NCBI GenBank assembly: GCA_018825385.1
Contig: JAHJEX010000006.1
Coordinates: 186-64,185 of the forward strand
Direction: 5' to 3'
DNA: 64,000 nucleotides
DNA from: Patescibacteria group bacterium
Lineage (GTDB): Bacteria > Patescibacteriota > Patescibacteriia > UM-FILTER-42-10
Position 1 is the stretch's first letter; the number at the start of each line of letters is the position of its first letter. Shown here piece after piece: positions 14,064 to 35,044 of this stretch. Under the pieces are notes generated by a model. The model was given only the letters and a program-made list of their open reading frames with translations, was not told where the DNA came from and did no database searches. A program made the position numbers and the translations under genes.

Positions 14064-14072
14064 AATCATCTA

Positions 14073-15871: not shown

Positions 15872-15883
15872 TAATATTTATAT

Positions 15884-16753: not shown

Positions 16754-16770
16754 TTAGCAATAGATCATCA

Positions 16771-18537: not shown

Positions 18538-18569
18538 ATAATAAAACAATAGAATTAAAAGAAACAACT

Positions 18570-18965: not shown

Positions 18966-18969
18966 ATTA

Positions 18970-20064
18970 TTGCAACAACCAGAATCGACTCTCAGGACGA
19001 ATGAGCAGATAGAGATAAATCGAATATTAACATCAGTGGCAGAGTATAATGCTTCTGATCTTCATCTTTCTGTTGGTAATGTTCCTACTGTCAGAATTGA
19101 CGGAGAACTAACTCCATTACGTGAAGAAAAGGTAATTACTCCAGATTTTTTGGAAAAACTAAAGCTTTTTCTTTTAGATGAAAAGCAAAGAGAAATACTT
19201 GAAACTGAAAGAGAGATAATCTTTTCATATAATTTTCAAAATCGTATTAGATTCAAAATTAATCTCTTTTATCAAGAAGGATATTTATCTGCTTCACTTC
19301 GACTTATAGCTTCAGATACCAAAACATTAGTTGAGCTTGGTCTTCCAAAAGCAGTTGAGCAGGTTACAAAACTTAACAAAGGTTTGGTAATAGTTTGCGG
19401 ACCGTTTGGTTCAGGACGCAGTTCTACTCTTGCTGCAATTTTGAACGAAATTAACGATAATAGGAATGAACATATTCTAACCATAGAGAAACCGATTGAA
19501 TATGTGTTTATGGACAACAAGAGTATAGTTGAACAAAGAGAAGTAGGAAGAGATACGCGTTCATTTGAAAGAGCTTTAAAGTCAGCTTTCCAGGAAGATA
19601 TAGATGTCATTCTAGTGGGGGATTTAAAGAACAAGGAAGTGATTAAAAGTGTCTTGGATCTTTCTGAGGGGGGGCGATTAGTATTTGGCGGGATGGATAC
19701 AGACTCTTCAATTAAAACTATTGAAAAACTAATAAACAGTTTTGATGCACAAGAACAACAACAAACAAGAGTTCAGCTTTCGGAGGTATTAGCAGGAATA
19801 ATTGTGCAAAGATTGTTGCCAAGAGTGGGTGGGGGCAGAATACTAGTGGCAGAAATACTTATTCCAACCCCTCCAGTGCGAGCTGTAATACGAGAAGGTA
19901 ATCTTCTTCAGCTAAACAATGTACTCCAGACTTCAAGAGAAGAAGGAATGATATCCCTAGACAGATCGCTGGCAGAATTGGTTAAGACTGGTGAAATATT
20001 ATTAGATAGTGCACTACAATATGCAGTTGATAAAAATAATTTACAAATGTTAGCACAACGCTAA
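18970..20064 (+). CDS. pilT: PilT-family retraction ATPase paralog with atypical Walker A (GSGRSS) and Walker B (VGDLKN)
   Basis: PilT N-terminus (ASDLHLSVGNVPTVRIDGE). P-loop GPFGSGRSSTL (Lys replaced by Arg). DVILVGDLKNKE (Glu replaced by Asp). TTG start. Confidence 0.8.
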   Translation: MQQPESTLRTNEQIEINRILTSVAEYNASDLHLSVGNVPTVRIDGELTPLREEKVITPDFLEKLKLFLLDEKQREILETEREIIFSYNFQNRIRFKINLFYQEGYLSASLRLIASDTKTLVELGLPKAVEQVTKLNKGLVIVCGPFGSGRSSTLAAILNEINDNRNEHILTIEKPIEYVFMDNKSIVEQREVGRDTRSFERALKSAFQEDIDVILVGDLKNKEVIKSVLDLSEGGRLVFGGMDTDSSIKTIEKLINSFDAQEQQQTRVQLSEVLAGIIVQRLLPRVGGGRILVAEILIPTPPVRAVIREGNLLQLNNVLQTSREEGMISLDRSLAELVKTGEILLDSALQYAVDKNNLQMLAQR

Positions 20065-20075
20065 ATAAATTTATT

Positions 20076-21284
20076 ATGGCAGTTTACGATTACAAAGCAA
20101 AAGATGTTGAAGGAAACTCTGTCACCGGAGCAGTAGAAGCTTCTTCAGAAACAGTCGCGGTTGACATGTTAAAAGATAAGGATCTAATAGTCCTTTCTTT
20201 GAGCGAGCGAAGAAAACGCACACTCTTTCAAGCAAGTCTCGGGTTTCTAAATAGAGTTCCCAGAAAAGAGGTTGTAATTTTCTCCAGACAGTTAGCGGTT
20301 ATGATCTCTGCTACGGTACCAATTGTAAAAGCGTTGACTATTCTTACAAAACAAACAGAAAATATAACTTTCAAAATCATTGTTTCGGAAATTGCTGACG
20401 AAGTTGATGGAGGTGCAAGGTTGTCTGACACTTTAGGACGCTATCCGCAAGTATTTGATGATTTTTTCGTGTACATGATTAAATCAGGTGAAACAACCGG
20501 AAAATTAGACGAGACCCTAAATTATCTTGCCGATCAAAAAGAAAAAGATTACGATCTTACATCAAAGATCAAGGGAGCAATGATTTATCCTGTATTTATT
20601 TTGGGCGCCTTGGTAGTTGTAGGTATAGTTATGATGATCTTTGTAATTCCTCAGCTAACAGCCGTACTTGAAGAGGCAGGCACGGAACTGCCATGGGCAA
20701 CAAGAATGCTTATGGCGACTAGTGATTTTCTACAGAATTATTGGTGGTCTTTAATAGTAATTGCGATTGTCAGTACATTATCGTATCGTTTGTATTATCG
20801 AACCTCAACCGGGAAAAAACAAATTGATAAAATAAAACTAAGAATCCCAGTATTTGGCAACATTTACAAAAAAATATATCTGACGCGTTTTGCACGCAGT
20901 TTTTCTAATCTCATTGCCAGTGGTATTCCTTTGTCTAGAGCATTGGGGATCGTTGCCGATGTAATAGGTAATCATACATATAAGGAAATTACGCTAGAGA
21001 CAATCAAAGAGGTTGAAGATGGAAATTCAGTGTCAACTGTTTTCTTAAAACACAAAGAAGTTCCCGTAATGCTGTCACAAATGTTAACTGTGGGTGAACA
21101 AACCGGCCGGCTAGATAAAATATTAGCAAAGCTTGCTGATTTTTATGCTAAAGAAGTGGAGAATTTAGTTGCAAATCTTGTGAGCCTTATTGAGCCTATG
21201 ATTATCGCGCTGTTAGGTGTTGCTGTTGCTGTGTTGGTTGTATCCATATTGTTGCCTCTATACAGTCTTTCAACAGCTATTTAG
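20076..21284 (+). CDS. pilC: type IV pilus inner-membrane platform protein PilC (GspF family)
   Basis: Two GspF repeats, three TM segments, 402 aa. Position after pilT. Confidence 0.9.
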   Translation: MAVYDYKAKDVEGNSVTGAVEASSETVAVDMLKDKDLIVLSLSERRKRTLFQASLGFLNRVPRKEVVIFSRQLAVMISATVPIVKALTILTKQTENITFKIIVSEIADEVDGGARLSDTLGRYPQVFDDFFVYMIKSGETTGKLDETLNYLADQKEKDYDLTSKIKGAMIYPVFILGALVVVGIVMMIFVIPQLTAVLEEAGTELPWATRMLMATSDFLQNYWWSLIVIAIVSTLSYRLYYRTSTGKKQIDKIKLRIPVFGNIYKKIYLTRFARSFSNLIASGIPLSRALGIVADVIGNHTYKEITLETIKEVEDGNSVSTVFLKHKEVPVMLSQMLTVGEQTGRLDKILAKLADFYAKEVENLVANLVSLIEPMIIALLGVAVAVLVVSILLPLYSLSTAI

Positions 21285-21459: not shown

Positions 21460-21924
21460 ATGAGAAACAAAAAAGGTTTTACATTAATCGAGTTGTTAGT
21501 TGTTATCGCAATTATTGGTCTTTTAGCCACAATTGCAGTAGTAGCATTAAACAGCGCAAGAACAAGTTCACGAGATGCTAAGAGGATTGCTGATGTCCGA
21601 CAGGTACAAACCGGGTTGGAGTTATATTTTAACGCCGAAACGGATTACCCAACTTGTACTACAGCTGCTACCGTCGCGAGTTTGGACGGTGCTGGTTGCG
21701 CCGATGGGATAACAACTTACGTTTCTGGAATCTCCAATGTTTATGATCCCTCGGGTGATGCAACTACCGCTGCTTGTCTTGTCGATGCTACCGGTACGTG
21801 TAACTATTCTTATCAAGGAGTTGCGGAGGGAGACAGCTATACCATTTTATTCTGGCTCGAAGGTGATTCCGGATCATTGACAGGAGGAGAGATTCATACA
21901 GCGAGTGACGCAGGTATACTTTAA
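21460..21924 (+). CDS. pilA: type IV major pilin (prepilin with class III signal peptide)
   Basis: MRNKKG|FTLIELLVVIAIIGLLATIAV is a canonical prepilin cleavage/methylation motif. 154 aa. Cys pairs in the C-terminal half. Confidence 0.9.
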   Translation: MRNKKGFTLIELLVVIAIIGLLATIAVVALNSARTSSRDAKRIADVRQVQTGLELYFNAETDYPTCTTAATVASLDGAGCADGITTYVSGISNVYDPSGDATTAACLVDATGTCNYSYQGVAEGDSYTILFWLEGDSGSLTGGEIHTASDAGIL

Positions 21925-21938
21925 ACAAGAGATTTTAT

Positions 21939-21986
21939 AAAGGACCTACTAGTCTTCAAACGAAGCGGTGGGTCCTTTTGGTTTTA
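21939..21986 (+). terminator. rho-independent terminator after the pilin gene
   Basis: AAAGGACC ... GGTCCTTT stem with an internal cttc-aaac-gaag hairpin, followed by TTGGTTTT. Confidence 0.6.
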
Positions 21987-22028
21987 TGATGCTTGGTCAG
22001 GAAGTAGATATTCCTATATAATAAAGTT

Positions 22029-24026
22029 ATGAAAATAAATAAGATTCTATTTATTGTTCTTGGGGTGTTGGTTACAGCGCTTCCTCTTTTTTTAAACACG
22101 GCATCTGATACAGAGTTTACTTTTAATAAGACACTGCTTTTTCAACTTGGCATTCTGATAATACTTGTATTACTTTTTTTTAGTAATAAACTAAATATCG
22201 CTTTACTATGGAGTAAGTATAAGACGATAGCGTCTTTGTTACTTTTATATTTAGTTGTATTGGTACTTACTACAATATTTTCTGATTCATCTTTTATAAG
22301 TTTTTTTGGAGCGGATAGAAAGCAAGGTTTGTTTCAATACTTATTCTATTTTTCCCTGATATTTATTGCTCTTGCTATTATCACAAAAATGAAACAAGTA
22401 TATAGATTGATATATTTTGTAATTAGCGGATCAATCCTAGTAAGTATTGTTGGAATTGTTGAGCAGTTGGGTTATAGAGTATTCGACTATACAATATTTG
22501 ATAAGGGGATAGCTTCTACTCTTGGTCATCCAAGTTTTCTTGGTGCATACATAGTTATGACAATACCACTTACGATGGCGTTAATCTTCATTATTTCTAC
22601 TAAGGTAATGAAGCTTCTGTTTTTATTTCTACTTATACTTCAAGGATTTGTTGTGTTTTTCTCGCAAACTCGAGGTGCTTGGATATCAATGATTGCAATG
22701 GTTGTATTTATTGGGATTATAGTTCTTATTAAGTACAAAAAAAGAAAATTACTTTATTCACTTTTGATTTTACTAGTTATTATTGTTGGTTTGATAGTGG
22801 GTACGGGGTTGATTCAAAAGGTTGTCGATTATCAGTCTGGATCGGGGGCATTGCGAATACTGTGGGCTGAACAAGCTTCCGAAGCAATTAAGAAAAGTCC
22901 GTTGTTAGGGTATGGGCTTGATATGCAAAAAGATGTCTTAATTAGCTATTATGATCCTCTACAAGGCGTATATAGTTATTACAATCTATTTACTGATCGT
23001 ATTCACAATGAATTTCTGGATCATGCATTTACATCTGGATTGATAGGACTGGGAACTTATTTAGCTATACTAATTCTAACATTTACTAGTGCAATTAGAT
23101 TCTTCTTAAAAAGTAATAACAGTAAAGAATCTGTAATTGTCTTGGCGTTGATTACTGGCATATTTGCATACATAGTTCAAGGGATGTTTAGTTTTTCCGT
23201 CACAATTCTATATGTATATTTATGGCTCTACATAAGCTTGATATTTATTACTATAAGGTTAGCAAGTAATAATAAAAAGGAAGATGTAATTGTACCTGTG
23301 AAGAATATGTCATATGTTAATTATCCGATAAGCTTAGTATTGATTGCGCTTATTGGAATTACTATCATGAGACCTATAATTGCTGACGGTTTTTTAGAGC
23401 GTATGACAAATATTAATTTGGAAAGTCGCTTCGCTGTTTATGAATTAAAGGATATTCACTCTAGTATTCTTCCTTATGTAAATAGTAGTTCAGGCGAATT
23501 ACCATACCGGATTCGATATGTTAATCTTTTATTGGCATTAGCAATTATGCAAGATACTGATGAAGAAAAAACAGAGTTGTTTGAATTGTGTAAAAATGAG
23601 TTGGATATTATAAGGCAGAAAAATTCATTAAATTTATATTATGATTTAAAAATGGGCGATTTAATGAGAGAGTGGGGAAAAATTGATTACAGCAAATTTG
23701 AATCTATGAATTACTATTATCAGCAGACAATAATAAAAAGTCCGAATTATGCTCTTCTGTATTATTATTGGGGTAGAGGATTAGAAGTTGAGGGTAATCT
23801 CACGGAAGCAAAAAAACAATATCTTAAGGCAATCACATTATTTGCAGATCCTGATACTTTTGGCATAGTTGATGAAATGAAAAAGCATTTAACGCTTTCA
23901 ATAGCGGCGGTATTTTTAAGATTATCAGAAGTTGAAAGCACGCTAGGTAATATTGATATTGCAAACACATACCACAAAAAAAATCAGGAGCTGATTGCCC
24001 CTTATCTTTCCCCAGAAATTCTGTAA
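22029..24026 (+). CDS. polytopic membrane protein with O-antigen-ligase/Wzy_C-like core and C-terminal TPR repeats (candidate O-oligosaccharyltransferase or polymerase)
   Basis: About 12 TM helices. FFSQTRGAWISMIAM region resembles the conserved SRGA segment of Wzy_C. TPR-like C-terminus. Sits immediately downstream of pilA. Confidence 0.6.
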   Translation: MKINKILFIVLGVLVTALPLFLNTASDTEFTFNKTLLFQLGILIILVLLFFSNKLNIALLWSKYKTIASLLLLYLVVLVLTTIFSDSSFISFFGADRKQGLFQYLFYFSLIFIALAIITKMKQVYRLIYFVISGSILVSIVGIVEQLGYRVFDYTIFDKGIASTLGHPSFLGAYIVMTIPLTMALIFIISTKVMKLLFLFLLILQGFVVFFSQTRGAWISMIAMVVFIGIIVLIKYKKRKLLYSLLILLVIIVGLIVGTGLIQKVVDYQSGSGALRILWAEQASEAIKKSPLLGYGLDMQKDVLISYYDPLQGVYSYYNLFTDRIHNEFLDHAFTSGLIGLGTYLAILILTFTSAIRFFLKSNNSKESVIVLALITGIFAYIVQGMFSFSVTILYVYLWLYISLIFITIRLASNNKKEDVIVPVKNMSYVNYPISLVLIALIGITIMRPIIADGFLERMTNINLESRFAVYELKDIHSSILPYVNSSSGELPYRIRYVNLLLALAIMQDTDEEKTELFELCKNELDIIRQKNSLNLYYDLKMGDLMREWGKIDYSKFESMNYYYQQTIIKSPNYALLYYYWGRGLEVEGNLTEAKKQYLKAITLFADPDTFGIVDEMKKHLTLSIAAVFLRLSEVESTLGNIDIANTYHKKNQELIAPYLSPEIL

Positions 24027-24034
24027 AGCAAATA

Positions 24035-25909
24035 CTATTCTTCTTCCATCTGCGCGACGATTGTTTCCCGCAGATTTTTTATTGTTTCGACCCGTGTAAT
24101 TAGTTGATTGTGCGTTTCTTGATCGGCATGAATTTTTTCTATATTTTCATTGTCAAAAAGATTTAGTGCAATATCTAAAACTTCAATTGCTTGATCGTAT
24201 TTTTCCTGACGCTGAAGAATAAAACCCAGCAACTGATACTGATATGCACCATTATGGGGATTGTAGCTAATTGCAGTCCGCAACTCTTTTTCTGCCTCTA
24301 AAATTTCATTGTCTTCTCCAGAACTTATAAAATTTAGGGCATAACCAAACGCTTCATGTCTTTTTGCAGAAAGCGGGTCAAGCTCAACGGCTTTTCTGGC
24401 ATATTTTGCACTCTTGTATTGATTTTCTTCGCGTATCCCTTTGTGATCCAGTATTCTTATTTGGTAGCTTTCCGAAAGATTGCCGTACAGATCGGCATCA
24501 AGGGAATTCAAGTTAACTGCCTTTTCCAACAGAGCAATAGAATCATCAACATCACCTAGGTCATCCTGAATTATGTCCATTCTTTTATTCCATAAATCTG
24601 TAATTGTTGGCACTACTATTATATATCCAACTATGAGCGACGAAACGAAAACAAAAATCTGGAACCGTAAATTATTATTTGTATTTTGAAGGTTTTTAGT
24701 ATCTTTTCCAAGAGGGGACTTTGCCAGAGCAAAGATTAATCCTACTTCAACAAACCATAACAGCAGCAAAGCAGGGATTTCCCAATCAATATCAACCAAG
24801 CTATGTCCAAATGAAGCTATAATCCCCCCAAATATTCCGACAGAATAATAGTATTGTGATTCATTTCCCTTTATTGTTATTCTGAATACATCTCTTGCTT
24901 TGCGTACAATAGAAAAAAGGAAAAACATAAATACTAAAAATCCAAACACACCCAGTTCTGTCAGAAAAAGCAAGATGCTGTTATGTGGGGATACTGAGAA
25001 TGACCAGACGTTCTGCTGGAAGTGAGTATAGATAGTTTCAAAATTACCAATTCCAACTCCAACTACGGGATTATGGGTAAACATTTCCCAACTAGTTTTC
25101 CAATAATCAATTCGATTATTAACTGCGTTTGACTGGATTGCGCTTGCTTGCTGGATCGATTCCCCGTTTGAGGGTGCATGAAGCTGTAATAAACCAAAAA
25201 TCAGAACAGTTATGATGACAATAACAAAGAGCAGTCTGGTTAAAAGTTGTTTAGTAGGTACTTTTCTTAATAACCATATAGTCAAGATAAAAACAATAGT
25301 CATTGCAAGCCAACTGGCTTGAGAAAATGTGAAGTATAGGTTAATTGCCAGTAAGACGGTAGTGATTCCGAAAAAAGTCTGTTCTCTCCGTTGTTTCTCA
25401 ACAAGAAACTGAGTCAATGTTATCGGTAAGGTAAGCAAAATAAATCCTGCAAAAATATTGCGCCAGCCAAAAAAAGAAGCAACACCTAAAGTTATATCTT
25501 GTAGTTGAAAGAAATTGACGATTCCGTTTAGAGCAGCAATGAGCGCAACGGCAGAAAGAGTAAATATAATAATTCTAAACTGCTTGCCGCTTTCAACAAA
25601 TTGAAAAACCAGCCAAAAAGCACCGATAATTAGCGTATACATCACTAAACCGAGGATGCTGTTATAGTGATATGCAGAAAACACAGTTGAGAGAATTAAG
25701 AAGAAAATAAAAGCTGTCAAAGCGATTGGAAGCTTCAACTTTTTTTTATCCAAGCTCGTAATGGCAAGCAATAAAACTGAAAGTATTATTACCTCAATTA
25801 TCGCCAATCCCCAGACAGAACGGCTGGACCATCCTAAAAGGGTGGATACGATAATTGCACCGATGCCAAATATTATAATTGAGGAAGATTTATTTACTAA
25901 AATTGACAT
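24035..25909 (-). CDS. second Wzy_C-like polytopic membrane protein with C-terminal TPR repeats (paralogous architecture to 22029-24026)
   Basis: Multiple TM helices. TFSQASWLAMTIVF motif. C-terminal TPR-like repeats (YQYQLLGFILQRQEKYDQAIEVLDIALNL). Convergent with the previous gene. Confidence 0.6.
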   Translation of the reverse strand: MSILVNKSSSIIIFGIGAIIVSTLLGWSSRSVWGLAIIEVIILSVLLLAITSLDKKKLKLPIALTAFIFFLILSTVFSAYHYNSILGLVMYTLIIGAFWLVFQFVESGKQFRIIIFTLSAVALIAALNGIVNFFQLQDITLGVASFFGWRNIFAGFILLTLPITLTQFLVEKQRREQTFFGITTVLLAINLYFTFSQASWLAMTIVFILTIWLLRKVPTKQLLTRLLFVIVIITVLIFGLLQLHAPSNGESIQQASAIQSNAVNNRIDYWKTSWEMFTHNPVVGVGIGNFETIYTHFQQNVWSFSVSPHNSILLFLTELGVFGFLVFMFFLFSIVRKARDVFRITIKGNESQYYYSVGIFGGIIASFGHSLVDIDWEIPALLLLWFVEVGLIFALAKSPLGKDTKNLQNTNNNLRFQIFVFVSSLIVGYIIVVPTITDLWNKRMDIIQDDLGDVDDSIALLEKAVNLNSLDADLYGNLSESYQIRILDHKGIREENQYKSAKYARKAVELDPLSAKRHEAFGYALNFISSGEDNEILEAEKELRTAISYNPHNGAYQYQLLGFILQRQEKYDQAIEVLDIALNLFDNENIEKIHADQETHNQLITRVETIKNLRETIVAQMEEE

Positions 25910-25912
25910 GTT

Positions 25913-26773
25913 CTACTTTTTGATTATTATTACCAAATGTGGATTCAAAAATGATCTTCGTATGAACTGAGGACCAGAAGAAACCATATTCATATAAAAA
26001 TTAAAGGGCTTGATGAATATTTTTAAGTACGGGTTAAAGTCAGTAACCTTAAATGAGAAATAATTTTTTAAAGGTAAAACCATCATTAAGCTATATTTAG
26101 TCTCTGACAAATATTCATTAATATCTTTGAAGCTAGCAAGGAAATCATTAGTTATAGAATGGAATCTCATTCCGTGTTTTTCATAATGCCAAAAGTCAAT
26201 AGGGAAAAGTCGATTTGGAAAACCGAATATGTTATAACCTCCCACTTTACTGACTCTTAGTAGTTCCTTAGCATACTGAGCTCTTTCCCTGTTTCTGATG
26301 TTTTTGCTTGATGTTTCCTCGACATGTTCAATAACTCCAAAATTCATTACAACATCAAAATATTTATCAGGAAAAGGCAAATTTCTTCCGTCAGCAATTA
26401 CTAGATTCTTGCTCTTTCTGCGATTCCAATAATTTATGCGATCTCCTGTATCAACAGCCCACGCCTCATACCCGATATCTGACAATACATCGATTTCGAC
26501 AGCAGATCCACACCCGACTGATAATATTTTTAGAGGACCTTCATTTTTAAAAAGTTTTTTGAATAGGGGAACAAGATATTTCTTTACCTTATTTATATTT
26601 GCTTCTTCCTCTTTTTCTATTGCCTCAGAACTTGTATCAGAAAAGTATTTTTCATAGGTCAGAAAATTTGGAAACTCCCCCTCGTAAGTAAAATATTTAT
26701 TACACTTAACGCAATAATATGCTGATTGTTGTTGATTAAGACTGTGCTGACATTTTGGACAGATATAGTTCAT
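25913..26773 (-). CDS. class I SAM-dependent methyltransferase with N-terminal Cys4 zinc ribbon
   Basis: CPKCQHS...CVKCNKYF ribbon. SAM-binding motif ILSVGCGSAVEIDVL. Confidence 0.75.
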   Translation of the reverse strand: MNYICPKCQHSLNQQQSAYYCVKCNKYFTYEGEFPNFLTYEKYFSDTSSEAIEKEEEANINKVKKYLVPLFKKLFKNEGPLKILSVGCGSAVEIDVLSDIGYEAWAVDTGDRINYWNRRKSKNLVIADGRNLPFPDKYFDVVMNFGVIEHVEETSSKNIRNRERAQYAKELLRVSKVGGYNIFGFPNRLFPIDFWHYEKHGMRFHSITNDFLASFKDINEYLSETKYSLMMVLPLKNYFSFKVTDFNPYLKIFIKPFNFYMNMVSSGPQFIRRSFLNPHLVIIIKK

Positions 26774-26777
26774 AATT

Positions 26778-27896
26778 TTATCTATTTGAGATATTTATTG
26801 TGTTTCTATATACTTCTAATGTTTTTTGAGCAGTTTTTTCCCATGAAAAATGTTTTAATAGATCATTTTTTAGCAAGTCAGATTTCGGTGATTCAAATGC
26901 TTCTAGTACAGTACTCTTGATTGAATTTATATCTGCAGGATTGCAATATTTAGCAAAGTTTCCCAGATATTCTTTTGCATATCCTCGATCAGTGCTTACA
27001 ACATTGCATCCTGCTAATCCGGCTTCTAAGCTTACTAAACCGCATGTTTCGAACCAGCTTGGCAACACATGTACTTTGGCAGCAGCATAAGCTGATTTTA
27101 GCATATCTTTCGTGATATCAGTAATAAGTGTGATATTTGGATTTTTGTTGACTTCACGGTGGATAAGTTGAAAATACTTTTTATGATTTTTTTGGGGTTT
27201 CCCAATCAACACCAGTTTAAGACCAGTATTTTTCAACGCATGTATTAGCGAGAGGTGATTTTTAATACTGGAAAAATTAGCAACACATAGTACAAAATCC
27301 TTAATGTTGTATTTTTTTGTAAATAGACCTGAATTCGAATTAACAAAATCCGCATCGATTCCATTTGGCACGACGTGATATTTATTATGTATTCCCAAAT
27401 CATTTTCCAGTTGTTTCATTTCCAGATCTGAATTTAGGAGGAGGGCATTAACATTGGAAAGCACTTTTTGCTGCTGTTGTACATATCCATGGGTAAGCTG
27501 AGAGAAGAACCGCTGATACAGATTAATATTTGTTATTGCTCTCAAAAACAGTTTAAAGAGTTCCTTTGTGTTTTTATCAGGAATAGTCTTCATAAAAAAA
27601 CTTTGAATACCATATCTTCCTTTACGATCCCACTCGTCAAAATTTTGATAAAGAGGCGTAAGGACTACGGGCTTTTGTTGATTTTTAGCATTCTGAAACT
27701 GAGCGTATGTTTCGTGCGGTCGGGTTATGTTAAAAAGATGGACAATATCGTATCCTGACAGGTCTGGTTCCAATTTTGTTGATATATTAACAGATACACC
27801 TATTTTCCTTAGATGTTCTAAAGTTCTATTTATTTGCAGAGTATCGCCGCCGGGATTGGATTCTAAATCAGTCCTGCTGTTTAAAAGAATTTTCAT
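26778..27896 (-). CDS. glycosyltransferase family 4 (GT-B, group 1)
   Basis: EX7E motif FETCGLVSLEAGLAGCNVVSTDRG. 372 aa. Confidence 0.8.
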   Translation of the reverse strand: MKILLNSRTDLESNPGGDTLQINRTLEHLRKIGVSVNISTKLEPDLSGYDIVHLFNITRPHETYAQFQNAKNQQKPVVLTPLYQNFDEWDRKGRYGIQSFFMKTIPDKNTKELFKLFLRAITNINLYQRFFSQLTHGYVQQQQKVLSNVNALLLNSDLEMKQLENDLGIHNKYHVVPNGIDADFVNSNSGLFTKKYNIKDFVLCVANFSSIKNHLSLIHALKNTGLKLVLIGKPQKNHKKYFQLIHREVNKNPNITLITDITKDMLKSAYAAAKVHVLPSWFETCGLVSLEAGLAGCNVVSTDRGYAKEYLGNFAKYCNPADINSIKSTVLEAFESPKSDLLKNDLLKHFSWEKTAQKTLEVYRNTINISNR

Positions 27897-28833
27897 ATTT
27901 TTTCAATTTATTCCTAGATATAAGAGTTAAAAAAAGAAAACCATAGTTTATTGCCTGGATATAATATTTTTTGCTAATTGACCCAATGATGATTCCAAAA
28001 AAGAAATAAAAAATACTTTTAAGCATTATGAAAAAATATAACTGGATAAATTTACCAAAAAAGTAGTGTTTCTTAAAAAATAGCAAAATATTATTGTATC
28101 CGAATATAATTGCCGGGGCTTTGTTAGAAGAACCACCATGTTTGTAGTGTATTACAGTGTCAATGGGAAAATAGTAGTTTTTGTATCCCTCCTGTTTAAT
28201 TCTATAACACAGATCAACTTCTTCTACATATAGAAAGAATTTTTCATCAAAGCCCGATACTTTGTCAAAAACCTTTTTCTTAATCATGAAACATGACCCT
28301 GATACCCAGTCGGGATTGAATTTATTTTGATATTTTTTTTCATTGAGTATATGATAGGAACTTTTTGGTTTGAATATTCGGTCTAGAAATAGAGCTTCTG
28401 CAATAATATTCCAGAGAGTAGGGAAGTTTCCGCATGAAGATTGAAGTGAACGATCGCTATTCATAATCTTAAAACCAATTGCACCAGCATCTTCATACTT
28501 TTCCGCAGCAGCAATCATTTTATTTAAAGCATTCTTTTCTAGTGCAGTGTCACTATTAATCAAAAGAAGATACTCGCCCCTTGCTATGGCAGCTCCCTGA
28601 TTATTAGCGACACCAAAACCCATATTTTTATCATTTTCAATTAACTTAATTTCAGGAAAATATTCTTTTACCATTTTCACCGTTTCATCAGATGAAGCGT
28701 TATCAACTACAATAATTTCAACTTCTTTATTGTGATTTTGATCATTAATTGAATTCAGACATTCCTTAAGAAGCTGTTTAGTATTATAACTTACAATGAT
28801 TATTGATAATATATTAGAACTAGATTGTTGCAT
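27868..28833 (-). CDS. glycosyltransferase family 2
   Basis: N-terminal GT-A signature IIVVSYNTKQLLKECL...EIIVVDNASSDET. The 29-nt overlap with the downstream GT4 gene suggests coupling. Confidence 0.8.
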   Translation of the reverse strand: MQQSSSNILSIIIVSYNTKQLLKECLNSINDQNHNKEVEIIVVDNASSDETVKMVKEYFPEIKLIENDKNMGFGVANNQGAAIARGEYLLLINSDTALEKNALNKMIAAAEKYEDAGAIGFKIMNSDRSLQSSCGNFPTLWNIIAEALFLDRIFKPKSSYHILNEKKYQNKFNPDWVSGSCFMIKKKVFDKVSGFDEKFFLYVEEVDLCYRIKQEGYKNYYFPIDTVIHYKHGGSSNKAPAIIFGYNNILLFFKKHYFFGKFIQLYFFIMLKSIFYFFFGIIIGSISKKYYIQAINYGFLFLTLISRNKLKKYENSFKQQD

Positions 28834-28886
28834 TAGCTATATCACGGTTATTAATATATCACTATCCTAAGAAATAAAATGTGTAT

Positions 28887-29924
28887 CTATTTTTTTTCAA
28901 GAATAGCACCAAGTATATAATATTCAGAATTAATGAAATTATACAAAATGTTCATAAAAAACCGAGCAGGAGCAAATAAGAGCAACTTTTTTATATACTT
29001 TTTCACAATGAAATCCTTGGTAGTCTTTTTTTTGTAAATATTGTTTCCTTCTTTACTAATTATGGGATCAGGAATATTTTTTCTTCTAGATAATGACGAA
29101 AAATAAGTAATCAATTTATTTTCTTTCATTGAATTATATTTGGAAAAATCTACAAAATGACAATTTAAATTACTACTATCGGCCATAAATTTAATACTAT
29201 TTTTAGTAAACCAAATAGTATGGACTGGTGGTTGTTCTGTAAACCAAACTGTTTTTTTGGGTAGATAATCTTTATTAGGTGTAGTTAAAATAATCTTTCC
29301 TTTTTTATTTAACAGTCTGATACAAATATGAATGAATTCAATGGGGTTAACAATATGTTCAATAAATTCTGTTGCGATAATAAAATCAAAATTTTCATTT
29401 GTTTTGAAATCATCATATGAAGTTAAATAGTAATTATCGCCAAAATTAGATTTGGCATATTGGATTGCTTCATTGGAAATATCTATTCCAATCGCATTGT
29501 GGCCAATTTTATTTAATGCATAAGTTAGATACCCGTATCCGCAACCTATCTCCAGGATTTTTTGTTTTGTTTTTTTACTTGAAAAAATATGATCTATCGA
29601 ATAATATGATGGTTCTTCATTTGCTAGGAAAAGAAGCGGATTCTTTTGGTCTTTGATTGTCTGTGCGTATCGATAATATCTATCATATCCTGGTGCGTTT
29701 TTTTGGGAATAGATGATATTATATATTGTTTTATTAGTACTTTCTTTTGAGATAAATTGAATGTTGCACTGATTACAACTAAAAATATTATAACTTGTTC
29801 CCTCAATATATCCTGGAAATTCTGAGTATATTTCAGTAATATTTTTTGATTTGCAAATTGGACAATCTATTTTTTTTAATTCCTGTTTTTCAATATTATT
29901 TAACATTGTTTGTTTGAACTGCAA
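28887..29924 (-). CDS. class I SAM-dependent methyltransferase with N-terminal zinc ribbon (paralogous architecture to 25913-26773)
   Basis: CPICKSK...CNQCNIQF ribbon. SAM motif ILEIGCGYGYLTYAL. Confidence 0.75.
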   Translation of the reverse strand: MQFKQTMLNNIEKQELKKIDCPICKSKNITEIYSEFPGYIEGTSYNIFSCNQCNIQFISKESTNKTIYNIIYSQKNAPGYDRYYRYAQTIKDQKNPLLFLANEEPSYYSIDHIFSSKKTKQKILEIGCGYGYLTYALNKIGHNAIGIDISNEAIQYAKSNFGDNYYLTSYDDFKTNENFDFIIATEFIEHIVNPIEFIHICIRLLNKKGKIILTTPNKDYLPKKTVWFTEQPPVHTIWFTKNSIKFMADSSNLNCHFVDFSKYNSMKENKLITYFSSLSRRKNIPDPIISKEGNNIYKKKTTKDFIVKKYIKKLLLFAPARFFMNILYNFINSEYYILGAILEKK

Positions 29925-29930
29925 TTTATT

Positions 29931-31355
29931 TTAGTGTATTTTAAATGCTTTTTTGAGTAAAGAGATAAATATATATTCTTTTGCAAGTATTAATGATAAT
30001 AAATAGAAAACAAAACTAAGTAAAAGAATTATTACTAAATTTAAACCGGCATATCCTAATGCAAGTATGAAAAGTGCCGTTGGTATTCCAAGCAATAATG
30101 GGGTTTTGATGACACCAGTCAAATCAATATTGAGTTTTAAGTATCTTTTTATGAAGATGAAGTAAAGAATAAATCGGCAAATTTCTAACAGGAAGAATGA
30201 CCAAGATGCTCCGTAATATCCAAAGAAACTTACTATTAACGTATTAGTAACGAGTGATGTAATGGTAATGATTAAAAATAAAACTACGAATTTTTTGACG
30301 TGTTTTGAATTTATTATGACTAAAGTAAGTGGAGCTGATAGAAAAAAGAATAGCATTGCCCAGCCCAATACTGCCAATACAGGTGCAGCATTGCTGAATT
30401 CTATATCAAATAGCGTATTGATTATTTGTTTAGACAATAGGGAATAGGTAATCGCTAAAGGAAAAGCAATTAGAAATAATGCTCTTATTGCATTTTCTGT
30501 GCTTTCTTTCAAATAAGTTTTAACCGTATCAATAGATTTTCTGGCAATGGATGGAAAAAACACAATAATCAGACTCGTTGGTATGAAAGTTAATGAAAGC
30601 ATCAGTTTAAATGCTGCATTGAAAATTCCTACATCTGCGATCGGAGCAAATTTGGAAATAATAATAACAACATTATATATGTAGACATAGCCAAAGATAC
30701 TCACCAGAGCAAATGGCAGACCGTTGATTAATAAATATTTACATAGAGCAAAATCAATTTTTAATTTAATTCTTAAAACTGATCTACACGCGACAAATAA
30801 ATAAATCAATGACAGAACAAAGTTTAAAGCGATAATAGCAAAAAAAATATTTTTTACACTATAATTCAACAAAAGCATAATTAAAGCAGTACAAGGATTG
30901 ATAATGTTTTGTATCATAAGAACTAAAGAAGATATTCCCATTTTTTCCAGGGAGATAACAAAAGCATTGAGGGTATTAATTAAAAAATTAGCAAAAATAA
31001 GCATGCCAAGAATTGCAATGAGCTGAAAGATCTGCTCTGAATATCCTAAAAATTTTGCAGATAGAATAATCAAAAAATAAATTATCAAAGCTATAAAAAA
31101 ACGGACCACAAGAGAATTGAAAAGATATTTTTCTAATTTTGAACTATCCCTCGAGATATCACGGATGGTAAGGTTTTCAATACCAAAATCTGCTATCCCA
31201 CTGAAAAGCATAACGAAACTAAATGACAGAGTGTAAATCCCAAACCACTCGGTACCGAGCAGACGGGCAATGATCGGAACAGAAAAAAAGGAAATAATTT
31301 TTGTGAATGTTTGTCCTCCAACAACAAATATAGTATTCCTGACTAATTTTCCCAT
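29931..31355 (-). CDS. Wzx-like oligosaccharide flippase (MOP superfamily polysaccharide biosynthesis protein)
   Basis: 474 aa with about 12-14 TM helices. Typical length and topology. Sits in a glycan cluster. Confidence 0.65.
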   Translation of the reverse strand: MGKLVRNTIFVVGGQTFTKIISFFSVPIIARLLGTEWFGIYTLSFSFVMLFSGIADFGIENLTIRDISRDSSKLEKYLFNSLVVRFFIALIIYFLIILSAKFLGYSEQIFQLIAILGMLIFANFLINTLNAFVISLEKMGISSLVLMIQNIINPCTALIMLLLNYSVKNIFFAIIALNFVLSLIYLFVACRSVLRIKLKIDFALCKYLLINGLPFALVSIFGYVYIYNVVIIISKFAPIADVGIFNAAFKLMLSLTFIPTSLIIVFFPSIARKSIDTVKTYLKESTENAIRALFLIAFPLAITYSLLSKQIINTLFDIEFSNAAPVLAVLGWAMLFFFLSAPLTLVIINSKHVKKFVVLFLIITITSLVTNTLIVSFFGYYGASWSFFLLEICRFILYFIFIKRYLKLNIDLTGVIKTPLLLGIPTALFILALGYAGLNLVIILLLSFVFYLLSLILAKEYIFISLLKKAFKIH

Positions 31356-31436
31356 GAAATCAATTTACAATTAGTATAAATAATGGTATTATTATACCAG
31401 AAAATTGACTTAAAATAAAGATGAGTTTCCTTTATT

Positions 31437-32114
31437 ATGGCTCTATTTCACAATCTTTTCAAATATATTTTTGATTTATTTATTGCTCTTATACTACTTG
31501 TGCCAGTAGTGTTTTTTAGTATGGTGATTGGGATAGTAATCAAACTGGAGTCGCACGGCCCAGTTTTTTTTAAGCAAAAGAGATTCGGAAAACATAACAA
31601 GCCATTTGTGATGTATAAATTTCGAACAATGGTTAAAGATGCAGAGAAACAGCGGGGGTCATTAGAACAAAAGAATGAAGCTGAAGGATTTCTTTTTAAA
31701 CTCACGGAAGATCCAAGAGAAACCAAATTTGGCAGAAAACTCCGAAACATAGGGCTTGACGAAGTTCCGCAGATTTTTAATGTCCTGAAGGGAGAAATGA
31801 GTTTTGTCGGTCCTCGCCCGCTGCCTGTAAATGATGTGAACTTTGAAAAATTGAGAGCAAATCCAAATCAATATAGACAATGGGAAATACGTGAGTTAGC
31901 AAAGCCAGGAATCACTGGTCTATGGCAAGTGAATCCGGGTGAGCATTCTTTTGAAGAAATGCTAGATATGGATGAAAAGTATGTTACAGAGTATTCACTC
32001 ATTTCTGATTTGAATATTTTCCTTAAAACAGTGATGATGGCACTAAGAGGAGTTTTCCCCGGACTTTTTGCAAGGGCAGGTAAAAAAAAATTAATAGAAG
32101 ATAAGAATATTTAA
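31437..32114 (+). CDS. small (PglC-type) polyprenyl-phosphate phosphoglycosyltransferase (Bac_transf family)
   Basis: One N-terminal re-entrant helix. Signature DEVPQIFNVLKGEMSFVGPRPLP. Confidence 0.85.
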   Translation: MALFHNLFKYIFDLFIALILLVPVVFFSMVIGIVIKLESHGPVFFKQKRFGKHNKPFVMYKFRTMVKDAEKQRGSLEQKNEAEGFLFKLTEDPRETKFGRKLRNIGLDEVPQIFNVLKGEMSFVGPRPLPVNDVNFEKLRANPNQYRQWEIRELAKPGITGLWQVNPGEHSFEEMLDMDEKYVTEYSLISDLNIFLKTVMMALRGVFPGLFARAGKKKLIEDKNI

Positions 32115-32115
32115 A

Positions 32116-32853
32116 ATGATGGGATTATTAGTTTTTCTGTTTGGACTTATCATAGGTAGTTTTCTTAATGTAGTAATATATAGACTGAAACACAAAAAAA
32201 ACTTTTTAAAAGGAAGATCTTTTTGTACTCATTGTAAAAAAACTTTGTCAGCAATAGACCTTGTTCCGGTTCTGAGTTTCATATTTTTACGCGGAAAATG
32301 CCGGCACTGTCAGAAAAGGATTTCAAAGCAATACCCAATGGTTGAATTGGGCACTGGAATAGTTTTTCTTATTTTGTATATCAAATTTGGCTTAACTCTG
32401 GAGTTTTTTATCCACGCACTTTTTTCAGTATTTTTGATTATAATTTTTGTTTATGATTTGCTTTACTATTTGGTCTTAGATGTTGTTTCTGTCCCTGCCA
32501 TAATTGTAGGATTTGCGGGGTCTTTGCTATTAGGATTATCACTGACGAATCTGCTGATTGGTGGTATAATAGGGTTGAGTTTTTTCCTTTTACAGTTTGT
32601 AATTTCAAGGGGAAAATGGATTGGCGGGGGGGATCTGAGACTTGGTTTGATGTGTGGGTTTATGGTTGGATGGCCAAAGATCCTTGTGCTTCTGGTAGTA
32701 ACTTATATTAGTGGAGCTATTATTTCGGTATTCCTATTAGCTTCGAAAAAAAAGAAATGGAAGGACTCAGTTCCACTTGGTATATTTCTTACACTTGCTA
32801 CGCTAGTTGTAATATTGTTCGGTGATAAAATTATTGACTGGTATACTCTATAA
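32116..32853 (+). CDS. pilD: prepilin peptidase (A24 family)
   Basis: N-terminal SFLNVVIYRL. Zinc-binding CTHC...CRHC. Catalytic GGGDLRLG motif. Polytopic. Confidence 0.9.
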   Translation: MMGLLVFLFGLIIGSFLNVVIYRLKHKKNFLKGRSFCTHCKKTLSAIDLVPVLSFIFLRGKCRHCQKRISKQYPMVELGTGIVFLILYIKFGLTLEFFIHALFSVFLIIIFVYDLLYYLVLDVVSVPAIIVGFAGSLLLGLSLTNLLIGGIIGLSFFLLQFVISRGKWIGGGDLRLGLMCGFMVGWPKILVLLVVTYISGAIISVFLLASKKKKWKDSVPLGIFLTLATLVVILFGDKIIDWYTL

Positions 32854-32855: not shown

Positions 32856-33632
32856 ATGTTCACAATGAAGTGTTTCAGTCCAAGGGTAAGAAGGGGATAC
32901 ACATTACTGGAAATGGTAATTGCTGTATCTTTGTTTGTTATTATCTCTGTAGTTGTTTTAAATAATTTTCGACAAGGCCAGAAACTGGACGATTTAAAAA
33001 CTGGTTCAGTTGAAATGGTAAGCAATTTTCGCGAAATGCAGACTCTTGGGATGTCTGGCCAAGTAGTAAATATTTGTCATGGCGGAGAAAATGATCTGGA
33101 TTCCTGTGCTGAAGATACTGATTGTCCAAATGGTGTTTGCGGTTTAGTGCCGGCTGGAGGATTTGGTATTTCGATTGGACCTGTTAACGAAGGTGATGAT
33201 GGTGAAGTGCACTGTTATGATGCAGGGGCGAGTAAACCTTGTCGAACCAACTATACACTGTTTGCTGATACGGTAAGTCTTTTTGGAATCAACGGAAGAT
33301 TTGAAAAAAATAATGATATTACCTTGGACGTTTATGATCTGCCGAATAATGTACGAATCAGAGATTTTCATGTTGTTTGTTCCTGGAAAGATGAACCAGA
33401 GTACACACCATGTCCACCTGCTAGTCCTTTTGGAATTGATGTTTCTTTCCGTCCTCCCAGACCAACTCCCTTCCTTCATTCGGCCTATGGTGGATTTCCA
33501 GGTACAACATATTCGGAACTGAGCGTTAAAATTTTAATAGAACATATCAGTGCGGGAAAATGCCGCATGGTAACAATTAATGGCATATCCGGTCAGGTAA
33601 GTGAGAATCCAGATCCTGATTGTCATATATAA
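32856..33632 (+). CDS. pilin-like protein (pseudopilin / minor pilin)
   Basis: Prepilin motif RRG|YTLLEMVIAVSLFVI. Cys-rich globular domain with DTDCPNGVCG. Confidence 0.8.
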   Translation: MFTMKCFSPRVRRGYTLLEMVIAVSLFVIISVVVLNNFRQGQKLDDLKTGSVEMVSNFREMQTLGMSGQVVNICHGGENDLDSCAEDTDCPNGVCGLVPAGGFGISIGPVNEGDDGEVHCYDAGASKPCRTNYTLFADTVSLFGINGRFEKNNDITLDVYDLPNNVRIRDFHVVCSWKDEPEYTPCPPASPFGIDVSFRPPRPTPFLHSAYGGFPGTTYSELSVKILIEHISAGKCRMVTINGISGQVSENPDPDCHI

Positions 33633-33647
33633 TAGATCAATAGTTTC

Positions 33648-34289
33648 ATGTTATCCAAAAGAATACTAAAGAATAATAAGGGACAAAATCTGATAGAACT
33701 AGTTGTTGCTATCAGCATTATTCTGATTGGTGTTGTAAGTACACTCGTTCTAACTATGGCAACAATCAGAGGAGGAAAGGCAAGTGAAATGCAGACAATA
33801 GCCAGTAATCTTGCCCGAGAAGGAATAGAGGCAGCAAAGCAGCAAAGGTATAACAATTGGTTAAGAATTGAATCGAATGATCTTTCGTTTATAGACTGGG
33901 ACGATGGACTATACAGTATTGATAATTCATCAAATATTGCAAGGGCCGATTTTAATCCTGCAAGTTCTCCTAATTGGGAAATAAATTTTGCAGTTGATGC
34001 AAGCGCTTCCGACATCTGTATTTCAAATGAAGAATGTTTACTATATTTCCAAAATGGAATATATTCTCATAATTCTTCTGGCGTTCCCTCCTCTTTCTAC
34101 CGGGTTATTACTATTAATCCTATCTGCATAAAAAGTGGAATAGAAATAATTAGAACTGACTCTGCCCAATGTATAATTTCTGATGGTGAAGAAAAAATTG
34201 GTTTACAGGTAATTTCTGATGTGCGCTGGCGGATAAGAAATAGTTGGAACTCAGTTGTATTCGAAGATCATTTATACAACTGGAAATAA
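33648..34289 (+). CDS. pilin-like protein (pseudopilin / minor pilin)
   Basis: KGQNLIELVVAISIILIG is an N-terminal prepilin-type helix. Confidence 0.8.
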   Translation: MLSKRILKNNKGQNLIELVVAISIILIGVVSTLVLTMATIRGGKASEMQTIASNLAREGIEAAKQQRYNNWLRIESNDLSFIDWDDGLYSIDNSSNIARADFNPASSPNWEINFAVDASASDICISNEECLLYFQNGIYSHNSSGVPSSFYRVITINPICIKSGIEIIRTDSAQCIISDGEEKIGLQVISDVRWRIRNSWNSVVFEDHLYNWK

Positions 34290-35044
34290 TGAAATATACA
34301 ATGAACGGGAAAAAAGAGAATTTGATATCAAAGCAAGACGGATTTTCCCTCATGGAGATGGTAGTCGTTTTGGCTGTTTTTTCAATGACTGCGTTAATGG
34401 CTGTCGATTTGTTTGTTACTATAACAAATGTTCAAAGACAGGTACGCAATCTTCAAGCAGTACAAAGTGATGCCCGATTCGCTATGGAATCAATGGTAAG
34501 AGAAGTAAAGACAGGGACGATAGATTATGAATTTTATAGGGGTTATTGTAGGGGAGGAAGTGAGGAGGATGGTAATGACTATTCCCTTTGTACCAGCGAT
34601 TTCGATTGCACAGTCGGCGGGGAATGCCTAGTAGTTGATTTATCTGATGGGCCTACTGATATTTTGGTCACAAGAGACCATGAGAATAACCAAATTTTAT
34701 ACAGATTAAACGGGGACGCTATAGAAGTGTGTTCCAATAGATCGCTCTATCGAGCTCGATGTGCATATGGCGCTAACTGGCAAACTGTGACCCCAGAAAA
34801 GGTGAAGATGACGGAAATGGCTATGTATATTTTCCCGTTTTCTGACCCATATTCAACTAAGACAAGTTGTACTGTTCATGAGGATTGTGATTCCGGAATT
34901 TGCGATACTGATACAAATTTTTGCGAAATACCAGACTTTCAACCAATGGTTACAATTGTATTAGAAAGTGAAGCAGGGAAAGATGAAGATCAAGAGAAAA
35001 TAAATCTTCAAACAACTGCAACCTCAATGATATACCGACGATAA
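34289..35044 (+). CDS. pilin-like protein (pseudopilin / minor pilin)
   Basis: DGFSLMEMVVVLAVFSM prepilin helix. Start chosen at the ATG overlapping the upstream stop (taATG), in frame with the ORF reported from 34244. Motifs SDFDCTVGGEC and HEDCDSGIC. Confidence 0.75.
   Translation: MKYTMNGKKENLISKQDGFSLMEMVVVLAVFSMTALMAVDLFVTITNVQRQVRNLQAVQSDARFAMESMVREVKTGTIDYEFYRGYCRGGSEEDGNDYSLCTSDFDCTVGGECLVVDLSDGPTDILVTRDHENNQILYRLNGDAIEVCSNRSLYRARCAYGANWQTVTPEKVKMTEMAMYIFPFSDPYSTKTSCTVHEDCDSGICDTDTNFCEIPDFQPMVTIVLESEAGKDEDQEKINLQTTATSMIYRR

Follow-up and report, generated by a model that had tools for sequence, protein, structure and literature searches.

The stretch of DNA described here, referred to as the window, is 64 kb long (64,000 nucleotides of contig JAHJEX010000006.1) and comes from an uncultured, ultra-small Patescibacteria bacterium whose nearest named relatives are Candidatus Kerfeldbacteria. 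It holds a full type IV pilus (T4P) operon, with pilM/N/O, pilB, a receiver domain, pilT and pilC upstream of the major pilin gene pilA, and with the minor pilins downstream (Pfam). A variable glycan-assembly cassette of 10 kb, called the island below, is placed exactly at the junction between pilA and the prepilin peptidase gene pilD. An earlier note, made from the sequence alone, had proposed that the interval 21460-32853 carries a candidate pilin O-glycosylation system. The gene inventory of this interval was matched by a listing of open reading frames (ORFs) and by Pfam scans, and every ORF named in that note was recovered at its coordinates with the domain assigned to it, above the Pfam curated cut-offs.

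The glycan-assembly genes between pilA and pilD

The features of the interval, in window coordinates, are the following.

21460-21924, plus strand: pilA, major pilin of 154 amino acids (aa) (N_methyl, E 1.2e-10)
21939-21985, plus strand: intrinsic terminator of pilA, a hairpin followed by UUUUGGUUUU (centroid hairpin -21 kcal/mol; minimum free energy of the whole fragment -22.2, z -3.55)
21994-22022, plus strand: promoter-like element of WzyC1, TGGTCA, 17 nt, TATAAT (10/12 consensus matches)
22029-24026, plus strand: WzyC1, 665 aa (Wzy_C, 68.4 bits; cut-off 31.7)
24035-25909, minus strand: WzyC2, 624 aa, with a canonical tail of tetratricopeptide repeats (TPRs) (Wzy_C, 70.9 bits; cut-off 31.7; and TPR_2)
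25913-26773, minus strand: S-adenosylmethionine (SAM) methyltransferase with an N-terminal Zn ribbon (Methyltransf_11, E 9e-13; Zn_ribbon_6, E 1e-3, weak)
26778-27896, minus strand: glycosyltransferase of family GT4 (Glycos_transf_1, E 5.5e-17)
27868-28833, minus strand: glycosyltransferase of family GT2 (Glycos_transf_2, E 1.6e-31)
28887-29924, minus strand: second SAM methyltransferase, with an N-terminal four-Cys ribbon (Methyltransf_23, E 5.5e-19; CxxC...CxxC, read in the sequence as CPICKS...CNQC)
29931-31355, minus strand: Wzx/MOP-family flippase, first gene of the minus-strand glycan operon (Polysacc_synt, E 1.3e-23)
31364-31399, divergent: promoter element, TTTACA, 17 nt, TGGTATTAT on the plus strand (10/12 consensus matches, TG present)
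31437-32114, plus strand: small monotopic phosphoglycosyltransferase (PGT) of the PglC type, 225 aa (Bac_transf, 199 bits, profile positions 1-178 of 179; EPS_sugtrans, 231 bits)
32116-32853, plus strand: pilD, prepilin peptidase (A24_N_bact, E 8e-34; Peptidase_A24)

Nine genes were counted between pilA and pilD, and seven of these lie on the minus strand (24035-31355), which means that the island does not form a single operon with pilA. The island has a G+C content of 0.28-0.33, lower than the value of about 0.37-0.38 on either side of it. Its borders carry no tRNA or Rfam element that would point to an integration mechanism.

The assignment of both large membrane proteins to the Wzy_C family (PF04932), which the earlier note had made, was borne out by scores far above the cut-off, and identical proteins are recorded as 'O-antigen ligase family protein [Patescibacteria group bacterium]'. 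The note had also described both as TPR proteins. This holds in Pfam for WzyC2; the tail of WzyC1 resembles TPR proteins in the AlphaFold2 model (residues 469-659; predicted local distance difference test, pLDDT, 89.5), and Pfam detects no TPR there. In WzyC1, a WaaL-fold core of 12 transmembrane (TM) helices is followed by a 13th TM helix and then by a TPR-like tail outside the cytoplasm (residues 448-665). Hydropathy and the positive-inside rule gave 13 TM segments, with a 75-residue loop (263-337) and the 218-residue acidic tail predicted outside. WzyC2, the gene of which is convergent with that of WzyC1, was modelled with a pLDDT of 78, and its Foldseek matches were consensus TPR proteins, the TPR domain of OGT and WaaL (E 3.5e-4, TM-score 0.60). 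The fold seen at this locus is the 12-TM WaaL fold with a large extracytoplasmic loop. The two proteins are only 23% identical to each other. A sequence search of both against PDB chains returned only TPR proteins and a marginal WaaL match (E 0.008); the profile search was swamped by the TPR repeats, and the fold comparison took the place of these searches. NCBIfam gave only sub-threshold matches to IctB and to a PEP-CTERM ligase, which are uninformative.

Two arginines and a histidine are important in Escherichia coli WaaL (R215/R288/H338) and conserved in PglL (R224/R298/H349; PMC3643930). Both island proteins appear to keep this Arg/His set of the ligase and oligosaccharyltransferase (OTase) family, apart from the first Arg in WzyC2. 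In an alignment of 23 sequences, R276 and H326 (motif HNE) of WzyC1 are invariant and R215 is nearly so; in WzyC2, R266 and H309 are invariant and a Gln occupies the position of the first Arg. The equivalence to the WaaL residues was judged by motif position rather than by a residue-level structural alignment. The family with this Wzy_C-TPR architecture is large. At E<=1e-3 it comprises 12,317 cluster representatives, and 105 match at E<=1e-30; most have 650-790 aa, and the matches span the full length. The pilin-linked clade makes up only a handful of the 12,317.

At the other end of the island, the PGT has one N-terminal hydrophobic helix with Pro23 (segment 4-22 by a 19-residue window) and contains the motifs GLDEVPQ and PRP; from what is known of PglC, we take its Asp-Glu dyad to be that of GLDEVPQ. 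Only 1 nt separates the end of the PGT gene from the start of pilD, and the two genes adjoin or overlap in L001, L003 and L046 as well (loci of relatives are designated by L numbers). Taken together, the PGT, GT4, GT2, two methyltransferases, Wzx and two Wzy_C proteins (Pfam/NCBIfam) make the glycan set complete for assembly. The claim of a complete lipid-linked pathway therefore stands for assembly and has to be narrowed beyond it, since domain scans revealed no nucleotide-sugar synthesis genes, chain-length regulator (Wzz/PCP) or LytR-CpsA-Psr (LCP) ligase in the island or in the 64-kb window.

The same gene content raises the question of whether the island is a Wzx/Wzy-type locus for a cell-envelope polysaccharide. 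One Wzy_C protein would then polymerise the glycan, the other, or an LCP enzyme encoded elsewhere, would attach the polymer to the wall or a lipid, and pilA and pilD would act merely as recombination anchors for cassette exchange. A PGT, glycosyltransferases, Wzx and two Wzy_C proteins are the standard inventory of such loci and the low G+C content suits them, as does the fact that Wzy_C-like proteins act in Bacillus secondary cell-wall polysaccharide synthesis. On the other hand, the island and the window offer no chain-length regulator, LCP ligase or export component, and the large extracytoplasmic TPR tail carried by both paralogs is not a feature of characterised Wzy polymerases. We regard a polysaccharide locus as the main rival of pilin glycosylation, though less likely than it; several further observations described below bear on it from both sides.

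Insertion site and variation among relatives

The block order of Patescibacteria T4P loci (pilM-N-O, pilB, pilC, pilA, pilD, minor pilins, then ligA and gatCA) is found in the window. Island-less pilus operons were located via pilin homologs (44-53% identity) on long contigs of other Patescibacteria, and in all six (L035, L036, L037 from Uhrbacteria, L047, L048 and L049) pilA runs straight into pilD, after which the operon continues with minor pilins, ligA and gatC (gatA where the locus reaches), as in the window. This indicates that the island is a true insertion into the pilus operon. The earlier note had suggested a synteny comparison, and its outcome agrees with the proposal, as the glycan genes of the relatives always lie between pilA and pilD. 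Some ten distinct relatives have retained the island, the most diverged with 57% identity in PilC and 39% in PilA (L022), and all relatives of WzyC1 and WzyC2 above about 30% identity are found between the same flanks. A scan of metagenomes for further loci yielded close relatives only. The islands compared were the following.

L001/L002, L003/L004 and L041: window-like order (WzyC1, WzyC2, GT4, GT2, Wzx) with other variable middle genes; the PGT-pilD junction is seen in L001-L004, and the L041 locus ends short of it
L005/L006 and L010: window-like order with WzyC1 split
L038: minimal island of WzyC1, WzyC2, GT4 and PGT only
L046: on a 1.18-Mb contig; WzyC1 missing
L007: pilin, WzyC1, WzyC2 and a large PGT, then glycosyltransferases and methyltransferases
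L022: pilA, a Wzy_C protein (720 aa), a CmcI-like methyltransferase, a 979-aa Wzy_C-TPR protein, PGT and pilD (PilC 57%, PilA 39% and PilD 40% identical to those of the window)

The ends of the island are constant, with a Wzy_C gene after pilA and the PGT before pilD, and the middle is remodelled. WzyC2 and the PGT form an invariant core that is present in every island, in L022 with WzyC2 only as the divergent 979-aa protein. Wzx, GT2 and the methyltransferases are lost, gained or allele-swapped between islands. GT4 is 68-82% identical among close relatives and occurs in all islands but L022. GT2, which belongs to the variable middle, is 30-59% identical among relatives and is missing from L038. 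The second methyltransferase, also in the variable part, is 25-28% identical to the methyltransferases of relatives, and the first (25913-26773) has no ortholog at this position in L001, L003, L038 or L046, being confined to the lineage of the window. Wzx is 35-80% identical among relatives, whose alleles are 35-54% identical to that of the window. This turnover of the middle, the Wzx alleles included, resembles that of capsule and O-antigen loci and speaks for a polysaccharide locus. Such a locus is harder to reconcile with L046, which has a single Wzy_C paralog, and with L038, where both paralogs are accompanied by only the PGT and one glycosyltransferase, without a flippase.

The two Wzy_C genes differ in their retention. 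An ORF resembling an IS200/Y1 transposase (Pfam 2.4e-6) interrupts WzyC1 in two diverged Kerfeldbacteria, precisely at the boundary of TM12 and TM13, and leaves a Wzy_C core of 421 or 434 aa and a TM-plus-TPR-like tail of 236 or 278 aa, both open (L005, 4427-7294; L010, 867-3436). With no more than 42% identity between the inserted ORFs, the split is taken to be old and stably inherited. WzyC2, present in every island, is most likely a better candidate than WzyC1 for the essential or core transferase; WzyC1 may have an accessory role, as an additional transferase for a different range of acceptors or as a polymerase. An attempt to assign polymerase and ligase roles by presence and absence across the loci gave no consistent pattern. 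In L046 (PilC 91% identical), WzyC2 converges on pilA with a gap of 85 bp (10001-12388). The 979-aa protein of L022 (12721-15660, minus strand) has an extra polytopic N-terminal domain of about 480 aa, with no Pfam match, in front of its Wzy_C segment and TPR tail; its neighbour is the CmcI/rhamnosyl-O-methyltransferase-like gene, and this island is without Wzx, GT2 and GT4.

The T4P machinery genes upstream of the island (12954-21284) are 86-96% identical across six close relatives. Mean pairwise identities were computed among six genomes and fall as follows.

PilM/B/T/C: 89-91%
PilD: 83%
GT4: 75%
PilA: 70%
Minor pilins: 64-65%
WzyC2: 64%
PGT: 62%
WzyC1: 50-67% (range, in the five genomes that have it)

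PilA, the minor pilins, WzyC1 and WzyC2 diverge together among genomes in which PilB/C/T are 86-96% identical. On these identities, the extracellular pilus parts and the island make up one fast-evolving zone.

Conservation also served to single out non-coding elements. A generic promoter scan of this AT-rich DNA performed at chance (52 promoter-like sites against 56.9 expected), and the size of the loop in the pilA terminator made it overlook this hairpin; only elements conserved across relatives were kept. The terminator hairpin is maintained with compensatory changes in L001, L003, L041, L038, L046 and L022. The start of WzyC1, which the earlier note placed about 100 nt after this terminator, is in fact 105 nt past the pilA stop codon and about 44 nt past the U-tract. 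Between them, the sequence CTATATAAT is invariant in five relatives with variable adjoining bases, and 17 nt upstream of it stands a hexamer like a -35 box. The invariant sequence ends 6 nt before the WzyC1 ATG, from which a leaderless mRNA is predicted; WzyC1 would thus have its own promoter and a leaderless transcript.

The second element lies in the 81-bp gap between the starts of Wzx and the PGT. A 16-bp near-palindrome, TGGTATTATTATACCA (31384-31399), overlaps the promoter element listed above, and its reverse complement, TGGTATAAT, forms an extended -10 of the minus strand; the near-palindrome can thus be read as an extended -10 in either direction. The whole element (31364-31399) is invariant in the window, L003, L001, L046 and L005, a set that includes Kerfeldbacteria. 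On this pattern, it may be one bidirectional promoter or the site of a regulator, as the near-palindrome could equally fit the binding of a dimeric regulator. As a promoter, it would serve two transcripts, the operon from Wzx to WzyC2 on one side and, on the opposite side, that of the PGT, pilD and minor pilins. The minor pilins (32856-35044) and a 747-aa ORF behind them share the strand of PGT-pilD and are tightly packed. Because the intervening 7.3 kb is antisense to any read-through from pilA, this clade most likely relies on the island promoter to express pilD and the minor pilins.

The elements touch on the polysaccharide locus again. The terminator between WzyC1 and pilA, the separate WzyC1 promoter and the seven genes on the opposite strand are what such a locus would show if it merely shared the address of pilA; the placement of the PGT within the transcription unit of pilD and the minor pilins, and the conserved bidirectional element shared by the glycan operon, are not.

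The acceptor of the glycan

The reading that we prefer, with a probability of about one half, is that the island encodes en bloc O-glycosylation of proteins, with pilins as the target. It would be a horizontally exchangeable glycan cassette that was inserted once at an ancestral pilA-pilD junction and retained in the Kerfeldbacteria-related clade. The analysis establishes the genes, the folds and predicted topology of their products, the site and conservation of the insertion, its variable middle and the conserved regulatory elements; the donor lipid, the identity of the sugars, the O-methylation, a protein as acceptor and the pilin as that protein are inferred. The small PGT would load a sugar-1-phosphate onto undecaprenyl phosphate at the cytoplasmic face, GT4 and GT2 would lengthen the chain to a short oligosaccharide, and the two methyltransferases would modify it, probably by O-methylation. 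After Wzx had flipped the glycan across the membrane, the WaaL-fold transferase would shift it en bloc from undecaprenyl pyrophosphate to Ser/Thr of membrane-embedded pilins before their assembly, its Arg/His catalytic loop and its TPR tail both facing outwards.

Four considerations make a protein, most probably the pilins, the likely acceptor rather than a lipid or the wall. Patescibacteria are not expected to make a lipid A-core. The Wzy_C enzymes that have been proposed as glycan ligases in monoderms, WsaB and WsfB, are protein O-OTases of S-layer proteins with a fused or neighbouring TPR (PMC2943079). TfpW, the glycosyltransferase of Pseudomonas aeruginosa group IV pilins, has the same polytopic design with a periplasmic C-terminal TPR and lies directly downstream of pilA (bioRxiv 10.1101/2020.04.19.049825). 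Finally, the island is wired into the operon of pilD and the minor pilins.

The closest known systems share some features with the island and differ in others. TfpO (P. aeruginosa, Acinetobacter) and TfpM (Moraxellaceae) are conserved-His-dependent Wzy_C-domain membrane enzymes encoded directly downstream of the pilin gene in the same orientation (PMC9829042). WzyC1 likewise follows pilA on the same strand and keeps the His. However, TfpO and TfpM have 420-470 aa and no large C-terminal domain, act on a Ser/Thr at the pilin C-terminus and depend for the glycan on O-antigen or capsule units produced elsewhere (PMC9829042), whereas here the assembly genes are in the locus, WzyC1 (665 aa) has a 13th TM helix and a TPR tail, WzyC2 has 624 aa, and WzyC1 is dispensable in relatives. 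With PglL (Neisseria) and PglS (Acinetobacter baylyi), the island proteins share a WaaL-like core with a putative Arg/Arg/His set (Gln for the first Arg in WzyC2), a larger size, an extra C-terminal periplasmic region and, presumably, internal acceptor sites. Homologs of pglL adjoin pilin genes in 21/31 cases (PMC3643930). In contrast to these enzymes, the proteins described here come from a monoderm, non-proteobacterial host, with an additional TM helix that ties the TPR tail to the membrane. TfpW differs in having an ArnT/Emb-like GT-C fold and a polyprenyl-P-arabinofuranose donor, compared with the WaaL fold of WzyC1 and WzyC2. WaaL itself (Cupriavidus metallidurans, PDB 7TPG/7TPJ) ligates to the lipid A-core and has no 13th TM helix or TPR tail; its identity to the island proteins is only 12-18%.

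The slg clusters of Geobacillus stearothermophilus and Paenibacillus alvei resemble the island in their monoderm hosts, glycosyltransferases, methyltransferase and initiating PGT, in the target gene near the cluster in Geobacillus and in a G+C content that is lowest in the strain-specific cluster centre (PMC2943079). Their Wzy_C OTase has its TPR part fused (WsfB) or encoded by a separate neighbour gene (wsaA), and the split WzyC1 of the Kerfeldbacteria resembles the pair wsaA (TPR) and wsaB (Wzy_C). The slg clusters, unlike the island, export a long polymer by a Wzm/Wzt ABC transporter onto an S-layer protein; here, there is a Wzx flippase and a neighbouring type IV pilin.

The pilin was examined as the putative acceptor. 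PilA is of the short Patescibacteria type, with a class III signal, the motif GFTLIE, four Cys and a strong GGAGG ribosome-binding site before its gene. The Ser/Thr-rich C-terminal half noted earlier is better stated as 23% Ser+Thr in the globular part. The mean Ser+Thr fraction is 0.24 in 11 island-linked pilins against 0.14 in seven island-less ones (one-sided Mann-Whitney p 0.003), with the L046 pilin lowest in the island-linked set at 0.175. Ser/Thr positions in DPS and SGSL of the island-linked pilins are suggestive only, being confounded by phylogeny.

A number of observations weigh against pilin glycosylation. The Ser/Thr enrichment is itself confounded by phylogeny, as the island-linked pilins come essentially from a single clade and five of the seven control pilins are closely related among themselves; since the two pilin groups are largely two clades, the difference is weak evidence. 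None of the 11 island-linked pilins has S/T as its last residue, which is L, Q, E, I, D or N instead (Leu in the window), by which an acceptor of the TfpO/TfpM type at the C-terminal Ser/Thr was rejected. PglL_A (PF15864) and Wzy_C_2 flank Wzy_C in the PglL/PglS classes (PMC3643930, PMC12645811), and neither was detected in the core domain of WzyC1 or WzyC2 at E<=10, where only PF04932 matched. Membership of the PglL/PglS classes was rejected on that ground. The analogy that the earlier note drew between TfpO and the pilA-adjacent WzyC1 is weakened, because WzyC1 is transcriptionally insulated from pilA by the conserved terminator and promoter box (both predicted) and is dispensable, being absent from L046 and split in L005 and L010. 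The flippase is missing from the islands of L038 and L022. TPR domains also scaffold polysaccharide export, according to a reference cited in PMC2943079, and need not imply a protein acceptor. Further away in sequence (21-28% identity), Wzy_C-TPR homologs from Gracilibacteria, Peregrinibacteria and other phyla had no pilin, pil gene or PGT alongside, which favours a polysaccharide function too. Moreover, hypervariable glycan loci classically lie between conserved, unrelated genes, such as the pneumococcal cps locus between dexB and aliA, so that position alone is no proof of a functional link.

The acceptor could also be broader. A general protein O-glycosylation system of the PglL type of Neisseria and Acinetobacter would serve many extracytoplasmic targets, for example the proteins encoded at 5848-12826, and the pilin would be at most one of them. 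The two paralogs might then split the substrate range, as do TfpO and PglL in Acinetobacter, one a pilin-specific and the other a general OTase (Harding 2015, as cited in PMC12645811). The presence of two OTase-like paralogs with only 23% identity agrees with this, as do the size of the Wzy_C-TPR family, few members of which fall in the pilin-linked clade, and a pilin lacking the C-terminal acceptor of the TfpO/TfpM type. Four tandem secreted or anchored proteins rich in Ser/Thr/Gly are encoded just upstream of the pil operon, and general OTases favour disordered segments rich in Ala/Ser/Pro (PMC12645811). Yet general OTases are typically unlinked to their substrates (PMC12645811), whereas the island is fixed in the pilus operon of every relative examined, and the marker domains of PglL/PglS are absent. 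A general system is considered quite improbable.

Returning to pilin glycosylation, a wider proposal is put forward tentatively. Long Wzy_C proteins that combine a 13th TM helix with an outward TPR tail might constitute a large, uncharacterised class of protein O-OTases; in these Patescibacteria the pilus, their main means of host contact and DNA uptake, would be coated by a strain-variable methylated oligosaccharide, and pilin, transferase and glycan might co-diversify under pressure from hosts or phages.

Flanking genes and implications

The features on either side of the island are listed below.

12954-21284, plus strand: T4P machinery, consisting of pilM (start 12954), a pilN-like gene (14073), pilO (15245), an unknown ORF, pilB (16771), a receiver-only regulator (18570), pilT (18970) and pilC (20076) (Pfam PilM_2, PilO, T2SSE with 433 bits, Response_reg, T2SSE and T2SSF)
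32856-37288, plus strand: minor pilins and the 747-aa ORF, to which Pfam assigns no function (N_methyl matches at 32856-33632 and 34244-35044; ORF spacing)
37297: start of ligA
39635: start of gatA

The receiver-only response regulator (18570-18965, plus strand) lies between pilB and pilT, is 87-96% identical in the clade and also occurs in the Uhrbacteria locus L037. A PAS histidine kinase is encoded at 46534-48030. The 747-aa ORF at the end of the minor-pilin operon (35045-37288, plus strand) is without a Pfam match, has an ortholog of 63% identity in L038 and may be a tip adhesin candidate. Just upstream of pilM, four tandem ORFs of 526, 523, 503 and 751 aa (5848-12826, plus strand) have no Pfam match, and their G+C content (0.42-0.45) exceeds that of the DNA around them. 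A membrane anchor at the N-terminus, then the motif AA(V/T)WQxPxVxPP and a long Gly/Ser/Thr/Asn-rich stretch characterise the first three, which are paralogs. The four are probably surface fibre proteins and possible targets of glycosylation. The sign of the GC skew flips near 6 kb (1-6000 against 6000-64000), where the coding strand changes as well; an origin or terminus of replication may lie behind this, or no more than the change of strand.

Proteobacteria are well known to encode OTases next to pilin genes (PMC3643930, PMC9829042, PMC12645811), and slg clusters are known from Firmicutes (PMC2943079). In full-text searches of the searchable library, no paper was found that links the pili of Patescibacteria or the Candidate Phyla Radiation (CPR) to O-antigen-ligase-type genes or to a glycosylation locus; pilin O-glycosylation in Saccharibacteria has so far only been predicted by a sequence tool (PMC12206443). 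What is new here is the host lineage, the enzyme architecture (WaaL core, extra TM helix and TPR tail) and the presence of a full glycan-assembly cassette inside a pilus operon.

The type IV pilus is conserved throughout Patescibacteria, and it drives attachment to hosts and competition in those Saccharibacteria that are in culture (PMC12206443). If the island proved to be a polysaccharide locus, it would be an ordinary surface-polysaccharide cassette at an unusual address. If pilin glycosylation is correct, lipid-linked protein O-glycosylation would reach a new phylum-level lineage and a new enzyme architecture, with a glycan cassette wired to the operon of pilD and the minor pilins via one bidirectional promoter. 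As few classes of OTases are known, such transferases may interest glycoengineers. The pilin-linked clade would then be the first clue to the role of the Wzy_C-TPR class and would suggest a function for a large orphan family of "O-antigen ligase/TPR" proteins, and the island would provide a genetic handle on surface variation in uncultured episymbionts.

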